NCBI GenBank assembly: GCA_001824825.1
Contig: MHTK01000002.1
Span: forward strand, 70,020-134,019
DNA length: 64,000 nucleotides
Reading direction: 5' to 3'
From: Candidatus Vogelbacteria bacterium RIFOXYD1_FULL_46_19
GTDB taxonomy: Bacteria; Patescibacteriota; Minisyncoccia; Phycocordibacterales; XYD1-FULL-46-19
This document shows, in pieces, positions 34,669 through 43,584 of the stretch. How positions within the stretch are numbered: the first letter of the stretch is position 1; every line of letters begins with the position of its first letter. Made by a program: the position numbers and the translations under genes. The notes under the pieces were generated by a model. It did not search any database. It saw only the letters and a program-made list of their open reading frames with translations, and had not been told where the DNA came from.

Positions 34669-34906
34669 ATTCCTATTTTACCTTTATTGGTTAGGCTTGT
34701 CAATCCCCCTCATATGGAATGATTCCGCTGACTGGTACCCCCAGGTTTCTCTGCGCTCAAAAGAGCAAAGCCATTCCATGTTTTTTTTGGGGGGGGTGTA
34801 CACCCCCCTGTAAATGTGCTCTAGGAGGGTCCTTAGAGTGGTAGTTTGTCTTGAAGTTGTAATATTGTGCGACTCTTTCTATACTGAATCAACAAAACTA
34901 CTAAAT

Positions 34907-35818
34907 ATGAAACTCATTGAACAACAGAAGCAAGAATTTCTCGACTACTTAGAGATTGAAAAGGGGCGGAGCTTGAAGACTCGCAGTAGTTATGATCGCT
35001 ATTTAAGCCTTTTTTTTAAGCAAACGAAAATCTCGTCCCCGACTGATATTGATGAGAATCTACTTAGAGAGTTTCGTTTGTGGTTGAATCGCCAGCCCGG
35101 TACGACCGGCACCTTGAAAAAAAATACCCAAAATTATTATTTAATTGCTCTTAGAACTTTTTTGAAGTACTTGGCGAGGCGGGGTGTTCCTTCCCTCTCG
35201 CCAGAGCGGATTGAACTGGCTAAAACGCCTGGTCGGGAGATTGATCTCTTAAATGAGGTGGAACTCGGCCGGCTACTTACTATGCCGGCCGACCAAGACG
35301 AAAAAAGTTTGAGAGATAAGGCTATTTTGGAGCTATTGTTTTCGACCGGCCTTCGGGTGTCCGAGTTAACCGGCTTAAACCGTGATTCCATTGACTTGTC
35401 TCGCGACGAGTTTAGTGTGCGAGGGAAGGGTGAAAAAGTGCGGCTGGTATTTTTGTCGCTCGACGCCAAAGAAGCTATTAAGACTTATTTAAAAAAACGA
35501 GTTGATATTGAAGAGGCTCTATTTGTGAGTTTAAAAAATAAAGTCGGTGATGCTCCGACTCGCCTCACTTCTCGTAGTGTGGAAAGAATAGTGAAGTTTT
35601 ACGCTACGAAGGCGGGTATTGGCAGTAAGGTTACCCCGCACACCATTAGGCATAGTTTTGCGACTGACCTCTTACAAAATGGGGCTGATATCCGCTCGGT
35701 GCAAGCTATGTTGGGCCACTCGAGCGTGGCCACTACCCAAATATATACTCACGTGACCGACAAGCACTTACGAGAGATTCATCAGAAATTTCACAATCGT
35801 AAAAATACTGGCTCTTAA
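34907..35818 (+). CDS. XerC/XerD-family tyrosine recombinase
   Basis: STGLRVSEL, VRGKGEKVR, TPHTIRHSFAT, LGHSSVATTQIY; ATG at 34907. Confidence 0.93.
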   Translation: MKLIEQQKQEFLDYLEIEKGRSLKTRSSYDRYLSLFFKQTKISSPTDIDENLLREFRLWLNRQPGTTGTLKKNTQNYYLIALRTFLKYLARRGVPSLSPERIELAKTPGREIDLLNEVELGRLLTMPADQDEKSLRDKAILELLFSTGLRVSELTGLNRDSIDLSRDEFSVRGKGEKVRLVFLSLDAKEAIKTYLKKRVDIEEALFVSLKNKVGDAPTRLTSRSVERIVKFYATKAGIGSKVTPHTIRHSFATDLLQNGADIRSVQAMLGHSSVATTQIYTHVTDKHLREIHQKFHNRKNTGS

Positions 35819-36139: not shown

Positions 36140-37612
36140 CTACTTGACACCGTGACGCTGACGAATTTTTTTTAGCTCCTTATTCTCGGTCTCACTCTTT
36201 TTTTCTTTACCTTGGGCGGCTAGTTTGGCTAATTCTTTATCCCCCAATTCATTAAGATCTTTAGCTCGGTTTAATAAGTATTCCTTGGTATTTTGGGTGG
36301 GCTCGTCGAGTACCTCTTCCAATAGAGCATGCAAAATTTGCCCGATTTGGGGACCAGGTTTCACGTGCAACTCGTTCATTAAGTCATTCCCGTCAATTTT
36401 TAGCATAGTGACCGAGGTGGGGCTACGCAAGGCCTCTTCAATCATCGATTCGTATTTTCTCAAGCGATAAGGGTGTTCCTTGGGCCGGCCCATACCGATT
36501 CGGTCGCTGGTGCGTAGCTTCATCAAGTCCCAGACATTGTTCTCCCCCACTTTGGCTATAATTCGGCGGACGGCTGACAAGGTAATTTGATCAACATCCA
36601 CAAAAAACATATGGTTTCTAACCAGTTTTTCCACCACCTCGGCAGTTTTAGACGGGTATTTTAGGTCGGCCATAATTTTCTGTACCAGTCGCGCTCCCAC
36701 TACCTCATGACCGTAAAAGGTCCAGTCATTTTTCTCTTTAATCCAGCGCCTGGTGGCTGGTTTACCAATGTCATGAAACAGAGCCGCTAGACGTAGGTGA
36801 AGGGGGAAGTCTCTCTCAGCGGCGTGTTGCAAAGCTCGGAGCGAGTGTTCCCAGACATCAAAGATATGATCCCCGTTTTGCTCAGTGCCGATTGCTGGTA
36901 CTAAGTCGGGTAAAACGTGCGGTAAAAGTTCAAGCTTGGAGATAAGCTGTAGACCCATCATTGGTCTTTTAGACATAATAATCTTGTTAAATTCTTCACG
37001 CAGTCTTTCTTTAGAAATCCGTCCGAGTAAGCCCGCCTCTGCCTCGATGGCTTGCTCAGTCACCGGGTCAATACTAAAGCCTAGCTCGGTAGCCAAGCGG
37101 ACAGCCCTAAGCAGGCGCAAGGCATCTTCGCGGAAGCGCTCGGTGGGTGAGCCGACGGTTTTGATGATCTTGTCCTTTATATCAGCTACTCCCCCAAACA
37201 GATCAATAAGTTGTCCTTTATCAAGATTATAGGCTAGGGCATTAATGGTGAAGTCGCGACGAGCTAAATCATCTTCTATCGATTCGGCAAAGTGGACTTG
37301 ATCTGGGTGGCGGTGGTCAGTGTACTCAGATTCAGTGCGGTATGGAGTAACCTCGACATTTTTTAAAGTTGGGTCATCGGTGTCCTCATTCACGATTGTG
37401 ACTGTGCCGAAGCGGTTTTCGTAAAAAGTCTTAGTAAATAAGGCCTCAATCTCAGAGGGAGTGGCTTTGGTAGTAATATCCCAGTCTTTAGGTTCGCGGT
37501 TCATTAGGCTGTCACGAACACAGCCTCCCACAATAAAAGCCTCAAAACCAGCATTTTCCAGGGTTTTGGTTATACGTGAAACTTCTTTTGGGACTGGTAA
37601 CGATATTTTCAT
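36140..37612 (-). CDS. cca: CCA tRNA nucleotidyltransferase with HD domain
   Basis: VGGCVRDSL..KDWDITT, RRDFTINA, FREDALRLLRAVR, LFHDIGK; ATG 37612 (the longer ORF runs through a tRNA). Confidence 0.9.
   Translation of the reverse strand: MKISLPVPKEVSRITKTLENAGFEAFIVGGCVRDSLMNREPKDWDITTKATPSEIEALFTKTFYENRFGTVTIVNEDTDDPTLKNVEVTPYRTESEYTDHRHPDQVHFAESIEDDLARRDFTINALAYNLDKGQLIDLFGGVADIKDKIIKTVGSPTERFREDALRLLRAVRLATELGFSIDPVTEQAIEAEAGLLGRISKERLREEFNKIIMSKRPMMGLQLISKLELLPHVLPDLVPAIGTEQNGDHIFDVWEHSLRALQHAAERDFPLHLRLAALFHDIGKPATRRWIKEKNDWTFYGHEVVGARLVQKIMADLKYPSKTAEVVEKLVRNHMFFVDVDQITLSAVRRIIAKVGENNVWDLMKLRTSDRIGMGRPKEHPYRLRKYESMIEEALRSPTSVTMLKIDGNDLMNELHVKPGPQIGQILHALLEEVLDEPTQNTKEYLLNRAKDLNELGDKELAKLAAQGKEKKSETENKELKKIRQRHGVK
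36357..36372. promoter_or_regulatory. parS-like site within cca
   Basis: GGTTTCACGTGCAACT versus consensus TGTTTCACGTGAAACA. Confidence 0.6.
37568..37583. promoter_or_regulatory. parS-like site within cca
   Basis: GGTTATACGTGAAACT. Confidence 0.5.
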
Positions 37613-37636
37613 AAAGAAACTAGTACTCCACTTGTG

Positions 37637-37708
37637 TGCTCTCGGAGGGACTCGAACCCCCAACGACGGTTCCGAAGACCGTTGTGATATCCATTTCACC
37701 ACGAGAGC
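37637..37708 (-). tRNA. tRNA-Arg (UCG)
   Basis: GCTCTCG/CGAGAGC acceptor stem; ACGGT-CTTCGGA-ACCGT anticodon arm; GGTTCGAGTCC T-arm; no encoded CCA. Confidence 0.95.
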
Positions 37709-37800
37709 CTAATGGCCATAGAATAGCGTGGAATTGAAAAAAAAGCGAATTTTTTAGGTTGTTTACTCTCGAGGAATAGTAAGTATTATATGTGCGGGTA

Positions 37801-37952
37801 GGGAGAATCGGTCAGGAATATCTTGCCCTCCGTCGAGGACAAGATTTCACGACCCTGGCTCACCTGTTTTTCTTGCTAGAAAAACATAGTTCCGCCTTTC
37901 GATTCTCCACGCAAGTAAAGCAGTTTACTTGCTCATTCCGTCACTAAAACCA
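37801..37952 (-). repeat. 152-bp structured module downstream of tRNA-Gly(GCC), copy A
   Basis: Exact reverse complement of 43392-43543, checked base by base. Confidence 0.95.
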
Positions 37953-37989
37953 CAAAAAACCAGGTTAAAACCTGGTTTTTTGTGGTTAG

Positions 37990-38060
37990 TGCGGGTAGGG
38001 AGAATCGAACTCCCGACTCGTCCTTGGCAAGGACGTGTTCTACCACTAAACCATACCCGC
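37990..38060 (-). tRNA. tRNA-Gly (GCC)
   Basis: GCGGGTA/TACCCGC acceptor stem; CGTCC-TTGCCAA-GGACG; GTTCGATTC T-loop. Confidence 0.95.
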
Positions 38061-39519: not shown

Positions 39520-39707
39520 TGGGACGTGGTGTAACGGCTAACATTTTTGGTTTGCCTGTCCGCCAAAGCCAGAGCCGGGACGTGGTGTAACGGCTAACAT
39601 TCTCGGTTTGGGACCGAGCGATTCCGGGTTCGAATCCCGGCGTCCCGAAAGGGGGCGATGGCAGGTGGGGGACCGAGCGATTCCGAGTTCGAATCTCGGC
39701 GTCCCGA
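39520..39707 (+). other. Interrupted outer tRNA-Pro (5' half 39520-~39552, 3' half ~39668-39707) enclosing a palindromic element and a full tRNA-Pro
   Basis: Both halves are near-copies of the inner tRNA; the break is in the anticodon loop. Confidence 0.85.
39576..39648 (+). tRNA. tRNA-Pro (UGG), nested inner copy
   Basis: CGGGACG/CGTCCCG acceptor stem; CTCGG-TTTGGGA-CCGAG; CCGGG-TTCGAAT-CCCGG. Confidence 0.93.
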
Positions 39708-39711
39708 CAAA

Positions 39712-39755
39712 AAAACCACCAAAGACTCCGCTTAAGCGGGGTCTTTGGTGGTTTT
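39712..39755 (+). terminator. Terminator after tRNA-Pro locus
   Basis: AAAACCACCAAAGACTCCGC-TTAA-GCGGGGTCTTTGGTGGTTTT. Confidence 0.85.
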
Positions 39756-39925
39756 ATAAAACTAGTTCGATCAAATCCAACGAAGCTAAATACACTTTTC
39801 GTGTTCATAAAATAAGTACCCGCATTATTTATTGATTGACAAACTGGCTTTTATTGAGCAGGCTAATCAATAGTATTGTTGTGTTCTAGTGTTATTGTAA
39901 TATAGTCAACGAAGGAGGATTTCTG

Positions 39926-43282: not shown

Positions 43283-43353
43283 GCGGGATTAGTTAAATGG
43301 TATAATATCAGTTTTCCAAACTGAGGTTGGGAGTTCGATTCTCCCATCCCGCA
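43283..43353 (+). tRNA. tRNA-Gly (UCC)
   Basis: GCGGGAT/ATCCCGC acceptor stem; TCAGT-TTTCCAA-ACTGA; GTTCGATTC. Confidence 0.95.
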
Positions 43354-43391
43354 CAAACCACAAAAGACCGGATTTTAACCTGGTCTTTTTT

Positions 43392-43543
43392 TGGTTTTAG
43401 TGACGGAATGAGCAAGTAAACTGCTTTACTTGCGTGGAGAATCGAAAGGCGGAACTATGTTTTTCTAGCAAGAAAAACAGGTGAGCCAGGGTCGTGAAAT
43501 CTTGTCCTCGACGGAGGGCAAGATATTCCTGACCGATTCTCCC
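43392..43543 (+). repeat. 152-bp structured module downstream of tRNA-Gly(UCC), copy B
   Basis: Identical, inverted, to 37801-37952. Confidence 0.95.
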
Positions 43544-43584
43544 ATCCCGCACAAAAATTTACCCACCAGACGTGATCTGGTGGG

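Follow-up and report, generated by a model that had tools for sequence, protein, structure and literature searches.

Behind two tRNA-Gly genes of Candidatus Vogelbacteria bacterium RIFOXYD1_FULL_46_19 lies a folded, gene-less module that contains an exact complement of the T-arm of its neighbouring tRNA. What is this antisense arm for? The first-pass annotation of the window (the whole stretch analysed here, 64,000 nucleotides of contig MHTK01000002.1) offered two readings: a guide that chooses its target by base-pairing, or a switch acting on tRNA processing in read-through transcripts. We consider it somewhat probable (about 0.55) that the module is a gene-less, non-autonomous element that carries a replacement 3' end for its host gene and selects its site by guide base-pairing in cis. 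As far as sequences can tell, covariation and the occupation of protein genes make the guide role the leading but unproven reading. The arm does change with the T-arm and with a non-tRNA target; we infer that it selects the target, as opposed to being copied from it or kept for folding.

The modules themselves are real and conserved, and they are undescribed in the sources searched. These were Rfam and a literature mostly outside subscription journals and supplements; such elements may stand unnamed in supplementary lists of IS, REP or TIGR loci. On present evidence their status is categorically new, a status that would fall if the enzyme turned out to be a known transposase or recombinase.

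The module behind two tRNA-Gly genes

The source genome comprises 708 kb. In window coordinates, with the junction marked by a caret, the two loci contain the following parts:

43283..43354, plus strand: tRNA-Gly(TCC), host gene (ARAGORN, Rfam RF00005)
43333-43337, plus strand: docking site G53-T54-T55-C56^G57 in tRNA-Gly(TCC)
43337..43354, plus strand: proximal tRNA 3' end (positions 57-74), identical to the distal copy at a spacing of 198
43355..43399, plus strand: hairpin resembling a terminator, with T-run; homologous between the two Gly loci
43400..43410, plus strand: inexact mirror of the 3' strand of the acceptor; both Gly loci have the TCC-type (AT)
43412..43433, plus strand: hairpin H0 with CTGC loop, immediately 5' of the arm (predicted fold)
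43436..43446, plus strand: arm (putative guide), complement of tRNA positions 54-64
43447..43487, plus strand: one unpaired A followed by helix P2 (11 of 13 pairs with compensatory changes)
43488..43534, plus strand: helix P3 and element end TGACC (8 of 17 pairs changed on both sides)
43535..43552, plus strand: distal direct copy of tRNA positions 57-74 (sequence identity)
37989..38060, minus strand: tRNA-Gly(GCC), second host gene, T-arm as in TCC (ARAGORN, Rfam RF00005)
37792..37988, minus strand: second module copy, arm at 37898-37908
37792-37809, minus strand: distal copy of the second module, GCC-type (TA)

As first reported from the letters alone, the arm GGAGAATCGAA (43436-43446) is the exact complement of TTCGATTCTCC in the T-arms of both tRNA-Gly genes (43334-43344 in TCC; 38009-37999, minus strand, in GCC). 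It covers three nucleotides before and eight after the junction, and an exact 11-mer within 190 nt would arise by chance with a probability of about 5e-5. The three hairpins drawn by the first-pass annotation, with CTGC, AGCA and GACG loops, lie where it had placed them: H0, then P2 (a G-N-C stem, a tandem G.A internal loop and the AGCA-loop hairpin at 43458-43479) and P3 (a GGTC/GACC base and the GACG-loop hairpin at 43499-43524, with one T-G pair). Its extent for the module, 43399..43552, falls within a larger unit of 43337-43552 that includes the terminator-like hairpin.

The segment 43396-43560 folds at -70.9 kcal/mol (z = -8.17; none of 200 shuffles was as good), the predicted fold being a junction closed by pairing of the arm with the distal copy. 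Such a pairing with the displaced 3' end had been anticipated; it does close the predicted junction, but only 8-9 of the 11 arm bases can take part, the distal copy starting at C56/G57 (43534/43535). When the tRNA is included, the predicted arm:tRNA fold reaches -119.2 kcal/mol, versus -113.6 kcal/mol for the arm:distal-copy fold.

The two Gly loci share an identical tract of 152 nt (43392-43543 and 37801-37952, 100%), and each closes with a copy of its own tRNA end, of AT or TA type. Their terminator-like hairpins differ by five substitutions and one indel and have homologs at tRNA-Gly(TCC) of two other genera (loci L002 and L003); the acceptor-strand mirror is missing from many homologs. The third tRNA-Gly gene of the genome (CCC) has an identical T-arm and a different core variant, so a shared T-arm alone does not predict this module. 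By extension from the topA homologs described below, the proximal 3' end of tRNA-Gly(TCC) would be carried by the element, and in the preferred model the distal copy at 43535..43552 would be the displaced original tRNA end.

Covariation and docking sites across genes

The layout recurs behind many tRNA genes and the tmRNA gene of the Vogelbacteria genome, with several core types; other core families there end in GGGGGA, GGAAA or GTTTC. A perfect 12-nt complement of the cognate T-arm occurs within 200 nt downstream of 13 of its 40 tRNA/tmRNA genes, as against 3 of 1542 non-cognate pairs; with at least 11 matches, the counts are 22/40 and 51/1542, and the observed cognate mean was reached by none of 100000 permutations.

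A pattern built on the core only found at least 120 loci, and 94 of those listed have a tRNA or tmRNA gene on the same strand within 500 nt upstream. Records of module homologs among the matches listed belong to Paceibacteria, other Patescibacteria or merely 'bacterium'. In 79 of the 94 loci the core alone sufficed to anchor the arm, independently of the tRNA; the 15 lacking an anchor were left out. Three docking registers appear among the anchored cores: 39 at C56, 37 at C72, which match the acceptor end only, and three at C74, which match two bases further on. The first-pass annotation had asked whether the segment covaries with the neighbouring T-arm, and it proves neither fixed nor lost: in the 39 T-arm cores, 215 of 234 variable positions match the tRNA (permuted 134, sd 5.5, max 157), and reduction to 29 distinct T-arms leaves 164 of 174 (permuted 98). 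The T-arm class is defined on positions 54-60, so that the unbiased part is 62-64, where 35, 36 and 31 of the 39 loci agree, respectively. The rare T-loops TGC, TCC and GTC (two Met, one His, one Asp) are tracked base for base by the arm.

A covariance model of the core finds nine places in the Vogelbacteria genome, and matches 40 of 101 class genomes and 7 of 141 phylum genomes, six of the seven lying in other classes; both counts include the Vogelbacteria genome, and related genomes are not independent samples. The 89 loci fetched, part of roughly 135 places found by the model, hold 100 matches: 83 with an upstream tRNA or tmRNA gene, representing 34 host gene types, while the remaining 17 include edge-cut tmRNAs, two topA, one efp and stranded copies. 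Occupancy of the same tRNA is patchy and exchangeable across relatives, and modules persist across genera at Gly(TCC). A narrow and very strict 18-nt pattern matches only the Vogelbacteria genome among 301 phylum genomes. Viral contigs gave no match with three patterns; a looser one gave 13, a single one with a tRNA within 4 kb, and the four inspected by eye were chance matches.

Core structure is maintained through compensatory change. A structure alignment took in the window copy and 28 cores chosen from the 94, all 29 having long arms and standard length; in it, 94.9% of cells are paired versus 77.8% after shuffling, and 24 pairs show double changes (0/500 shuffles); these pairing statistics are inflated by relatedness, and nine invariant P3 pairs are fixed by the search pattern and provide no evidence. 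The sense strand folds better in 108 of 117 cases with RNA parameters and in 113 of 117 with DNA parameters, isolated G-T pairs outnumbering A-C pairs by 18 to 6. This bias names the strand, not the polymer (DNA or RNA), and is compatible with a strand-specific single-stranded intermediate. CTNC loops stand ahead of 87 of 140 cores (74 CTGC, 9 CTTC, 4 CTAC).

A common junction rule emerges when the 140 distinct cores are pooled: 117 have an upstream match of 8-9 out of 9 bases (permuted mean 33, max 43). Their docking site reads G-N-N-C^R, with G at -4 and C at -1 in 116 cases each and a purine at +1 in 115, and NN takes nine values. In sequence, the arm complements N-N-C^R plus another 6-9 docking-site bases. 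In all registers it ends two bases beyond the C and is followed by one unpaired base (A in 118/140) and the core. The distal copy begins right after the junction C, at +1,+2 in 104/117. The NN of the element end (AC) differs from that of the targets. A G at position 53 proves nothing, because G53 is universal in tRNAs; at short-arm sites, however, G69 is present in 37/37, versus 19/35 of own-genome tRNAs with C72. Because the arm does not cover the -4 G, this base is a separate requirement.

The same core occupies the 3' end of topA in five genomes of three families (the Vogelbacteria genome and four more):

Contig C8:32,600-32,900 of the own genome: topA copy (L227/L228), topA confirmed by a Pfam check
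L241, L235, L256, L259: other topA loci

The topA sites read G-GA-C or G-CA-C, and the arm switches with the site (GGAC^A versus GCAC^G). These arms match 9-11 of 12 bases and lie 105-123 nt from their complement with no mirror in between. After TGACC comes a second version of the last 20-25 codons (60-80 nt), in frame and with both cysteines in L241, L235 and L259. Distal and proximal versions differ by seven synonymous and three non-synonymous changes in L241 and by three and none in L235, and the displaced topA end is a second allele. The topA homologs also suggest that the element brings a replacement gene end. In the own genome, the distal topA copy is decayed (six synonymous, seven non-synonymous changes) and the arm matches 9/12, two drifted bases being unmatched; from this drift and decay, some copies are old and immobile. 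The layout recurs with a poorer fit at the 3' end of efp (L327, degenerate arm) and at a peptidase gene end (L076, G-CA-A site).

A terminator-like hairpin with a T-run stands ahead of the arm at 23/36 loci with long and 36/41 with short arms, and at many tRNA loci a single long palindrome has the terminator at its centre and the arm as its outer part. Among the six genomes of other classes, isolated arms of ~10 nt without acceptor mirror are frequent, and the tRNA genes there often encode CCA. Judged by their sequences, the topA and other-class cases show the arm to be a part of its own, not the tail of a terminator palindrome. Individual loci differ in what the arm records: at L002 and L129, an A52-C62 mismatch in the T-stem of tRNA-Gly(TCC) is mirrored by the arm and the distal copy is normal; at L030, the tRNA allele has been replaced, and arm and distal copy retain the old one.

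Some modules are stranded kilobases away from their tRNA. At L204 and L062, islands at the tRNA-Ser end displace the module 1-2 kb from the tRNA, and the L204 island encodes a large serine recombinase. At L054 (1339-1700), tRNA-Lys(CTT) is inverted relative to the usual Cys-Leu-Lys-Leu cluster, with short-arm modules on both sides, one of them on the strand opposite the tRNA at its 5' end; an inversion between two acceptor strands, or a misassembly, is possible.

How the module might move, and what else it might be

In the preferred model, an element would consist, from 5' to 3', of a replacement 3' end, a spacer or terminator hairpin, a CTNC-loop hairpin, an arm of ~9-12 nt and a two-helix core ending in TGACC. 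It would leave as a circle of folded single-stranded DNA running from one C^R junction to the other (43337-43534), and the arm would then swap the copy of its own gene end for a matching single-stranded target. An enzyme acting in trans would cut after the C and exchange one strand; HUH-like chemistry is what we would guess first, since three of the bases held by the arm lie 5' of the cut, as with the IS608 guides at their cleavage site (PMC5934647). Replication would fix the insertion, the carried 3' end would restore the gene, and the original end would be pushed downstream. The two Gly copies could have arisen through such a move followed by acceptor correction, or through gene conversion between modules already resident at both loci. 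At Gly(GCC) and at L129, the acceptor mirror is of AT type and both gene ends are of TA type, so that the carried end would need an extra repair step or gene conversion. Extended to the Patescibacteria, the claim would be that they harbour undescribed gene-less mobile elements whose insertion is programmed by their own 9-12-nt guide, with a folded core that recruits a host or helper enzyme, a guide able to pair across G-N-N-C^R whatever the gene, and insertions rendered harmless by the 3' end brought along; this joint claim we put forward tentatively, at somewhat less than even odds.

Covariation alone cannot separate a guide from a copy. A mobile core whose arm is a by-product is the foremost alternative, even if we hold it rather unlikely. 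The arm would then have been copied from the target by fold-back synthesis, or matched to it later by template switching or gene conversion; both gene ends would be a target duplication, and the arm would close the fold without choosing the site. Such an origin would suit the two Gly loci, where proximal and distal ends are both cognate, the terminator-centred palindromes at many tRNA loci, and the T-stem mismatch mirrored at L002/L129. We had also counted 11 hand-picked distal-only differences at T-loop positions 57/59 as a sign that the tRNA end travels with the arm; a blind recount of 47 loci (57:2, 58:2, 59:2, 62:1, 64:1) failed to bear this out, the idea was dropped, and its failure also speaks for a by-product. 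Copying fits poorly, however, with arms isolated ~105 nt from their complement with no intervening mirror (topA, other classes), with a 60-80 nt duplication whose synonymous differences and different tails are unlike a staggered-cut duplication, with an arm end fixed two bases past the C in all registers, and with arms that can keep an old allele after the host gene has changed (L030, own topA). A folded attachment site for a recombinase of a known class, which the host or an island would supply, is improbable: be it tyrosine (as in integron attC or CTX-type systems) or large serine (as in DsiB), the arm would merely be the complementary strand of the folded site. One protein would need to read at least 34 different sites, and recombinases show no association with module presence (18/37 versus 13/24). 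Recombinase islands insert between tRNA and module and displace the module (L204), and so look independent. The element-end NN (AC) differs from the target NN, a mismatch that, to our knowledge, serine recombinases do not allow. The R' and R'' boxes of attC sites (GTTRRRY and RYYYAAC) are absent from both strands of 43337-43552. Exchange by a tyrosine recombinase at the classical 60/61 position was rejected, as short-arm sites show no extra identity at 75-76.

The active form could instead be RNA, a read-through transcript in which the arm serves as internal guide sequence, spanning 3 nt of the 5' exon and 8 nt of the 3' exon, with self-excision, reverse splicing and reverse transcription in trans. 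The module always lies on the host-gene sense strand, with one exception, the sense strand is the better folder with RNA parameters and is rich in G-T relative to A-C pairs, the guide geometry resembles that of the internal guide of introns, and the own genome encodes a reverse transcriptase. Yet the strand bias is equally strong with DNA parameters, the core spans ~90 nt, Rfam gives it not so much as a weak match to a ribozyme or intron, the arm usually lies behind a terminator-like hairpin, and the reverse transcriptase looks by its context like a DGR enzyme; taken together, we find this reading more doubtful again than an attachment site. That gene (333 aa, contig C6:198,300-200,500, L153) is accompanied by a small ORF and a short repeat-like ORF, and the locus looks like a diversity-generating retroelement. 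As for the second reading of the first-pass annotation, a cis-acting RNA switch that refolds the T-arm of a read-through pre-tRNA and controls its processing or decay, the predicted minimum-energy fold has the arm invading the T-arm and beats the alternative by 5.6 kcal/mol, and the persistence of modules across genera at Gly(TCC) would agree with such a role. It is nevertheless very unlikely: nearly half of the anchored cores (37/79) are without any T-arm complement, protein genes serve as targets, presence at orthologous tRNAs is patchy, modules are stranded kilobases from a tRNA, one copy lies on the strand opposite to the tRNA, and a terminator-like hairpin lies ahead of the arm at most loci (23/36 long-arm, 36/41 short-arm). 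Finally, two similar repeats might have been collapsed into one consensus, given a metagenome assembly and a 152-nt tract of 100% identity. This is scarcely credible, and could concern at most the exact identity of the two copies: independent contigs of run X1 enter the common sequence from both terminators, a contig of run X5, from a separate study, spans the GCC-type locus, and the family occurs in dozens of independently assembled genomes.

Known systems, candidate enzymes and nearby loci

By analogy, the module would combine a layout like that of tRNA islands with target reading like that of IS608 or bridge RNAs, a defining feature of each family being absent. With IS200/IS605 (IS608) and REP/TnpA-REP systems it shares a small folded single strand and a cleavage site set by DNA-DNA pairing at the foot of a hairpin. 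IS608 guides pair with the cleavage site, the left guide being AAAG (PMC5934647), and extended pairing has been used to engineer IS608 towards targets of 12-17 nt (PMC5934647, PMC8266576). These left guide letters are found at the equivalent place in the module. The natural pairing of the module is, however, linear, 9-12 nt long and across the cut, a replacement gene end is carried, and there is no linked TnpA: no cognate Y1 gene is flanked by the same hairpins. In the IS200/IS605 tetranucleotide guide, the second guide base cross-pairs with -4 (in part after PMC5934647); in the module, -4 is a constant G, and the arm's pair of variable bases tracks -2 and -3 in linear order.

Like the IS110 bridge RNA, the module joins an unchanging scaffold to a short stretch that varies in step with its target; the bridge RNA was found by a covariation test of the same kind (PMC11208160). 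Guide-target covariation, as in IS110/IS1111 and TIGR-Tas, is indeed observed here, but the domain searches described below gave no gene for a DEDD/Nop recombinase or Tas; two guides on opposite strands are replaced by one contiguous arm on one strand, the rest of the core being target-independent in the alignment, and the gene-less module duplicates or replaces a gene end. IS91 (rolling-circle, Y2) has the target GTTC and a subterminal palindrome beside its end (bioRxiv 10.1101/2025.01.24.634351), and resembles the module in that GTTC equals G53-T54-T55-C56 and that a palindrome lies near the end. The module uses nine NN types with a second base not fixed as T, unlike the fixed GTTC/CTTG target of IS91/ISCR, and a Y2 transposase occurs in 1/61 genomes. 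Theta ribozymes are small structured elements directly behind tRNA genes (PMC10879173); the module has no HDV-like Rfam match, shows branched helices and an antisense arm, and has a direct repeat, not a cleavage site, at the tRNA end. PMC6006769, PMC3146451 and PMC12045711 also informed these comparisons.

Like tRNA and tmRNA islands, the module has a direct repeat of the gene 3' end at its far boundary. It differs from them, and especially from the Dehalococcoides ssrA islands (DsiB), in having no integrase inside or beside it, a length of ~200 nt, an internal complement of the site, and one core at 34 or more gene types and in protein genes. Integron attC is a folded single-stranded recombination site with variable arms and cargo between repeats; in the module there are no R boxes, no IntI-attI platform was found, and the arms are tailored to host genes. 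The Rfam search proposed by the first-pass annotation returned only tRNAs at gathering score and thus no family for the module, apart from four chance-level matches (E 0.54-8.1).

If the arm is a guide, the modules would amount to programmable DNA insertion of a new kind, governed by the minimal rule G-N-N-C^R and built on a scaffold of 100 nt; the enzyme involved would be a candidate tool. A rewritten guide would then send integration elsewhere, which would make the modules natural analogues of IS608 with engineered targeting and of bridge RNAs. A guide would also explain gene-end swaps and cargo behind tRNAs in the small, island-poor Patescibacteria without an integrase for each site. Even on the weakest reading, a widespread and strongly conserved structured element, present in ~40% of sampled class genomes, is missing from Rfam.

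Among candidate enzymes, Y1, Y2, IS110, Nop, Cas1, serine recombinases and GIY-YIG all went without support. Y1 transposases, compared with a crude module call in 61 genomes, occur in 23/37 positive and 16/24 negative genomes, with no association, and none of 30 Y1 loci is flanked by the core, one showing an incidental match beside a tRNA 1.3 kb away. A Y1 (RAYT-like) gene of the own genome (contig C7:5,100-5,800, L151) is flanked by short palindromes unrelated to the modules and present in three copies. The IS91-type Y2 transposase is absent from the own genome; the control genomes gave no match either, and the single strong match behind the 1/61 is the sole gauge of the sensitivity of this search. 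IS110, serine recombinase and Cas1, as well as PF01548 and PF02371, were likewise not found in the own genome, and PF01798 (Nop) in none of 41 genomes, a search that could miss divergent Tas proteins. The 374 ORFs within 1.5 kb of the 120 listed cores include no recombinase motif and no recurring mobile gene, and 30 recombinase loci hold no core except one displaced module.

Contigs of four sequencing runs contain no joint that cleanly skips the module; neither in these contigs nor in a metagenome scan was a circle, an empty site or a strain polymorphism seen, and the scan for strains with another module at Gly(TCC) gave no match, although close genomes may lie outside its coverage. The sequencing runs listed for this sequence include none of RNA, a result that carries no information on expression. 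A strain contig of run X5 aligns only from 43582, after 249 other bases (window 43333-43581), and this strain may carry a different module at Gly(TCC).

Several other arrangements were observed near tRNA genes. In the own genome, a 92-aa GIY-YIG gene lies between two copies of the tRNA-Thr(TGT) promoter and first 18 nt (contig C6:243,816-244,270, L354), and a small palindrome breaks up the upstream copy; tRNA-Lys(CTT) and tRNA-Ala(CGC) have similar duplications of the 5' end ahead of them, and together they look like a separate 5'-end cassette system. Within the window, tRNA-Pro(TGG) is flanked by a copy of its 5' half and a copy of its 3' half (39521-39757), and a XerC/D-like recombinase gene converges on a CCA-adding-enzyme-like gene beside a tRNA cluster (34814-35818 and 36140-37702). 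Small orphan genes form cargo between repeated modules and repeated tRNA-Asn ends on contig C6:172,500-180,974. The genome also has a tRNA-Ile with anticodon TAT (contig C5:40,205-40,278), which is rare in bacteria, and an RNase P RNA scoring only 54 bits against a family cut-off of 100 (contig C4:48,449-48,804). Perfect palindromes of 30-50 nt sit in module hairpin loops, for example behind tRNA-Arg(TCT), Lys(TTT) and Thr(TGT), and form a further repeat family.
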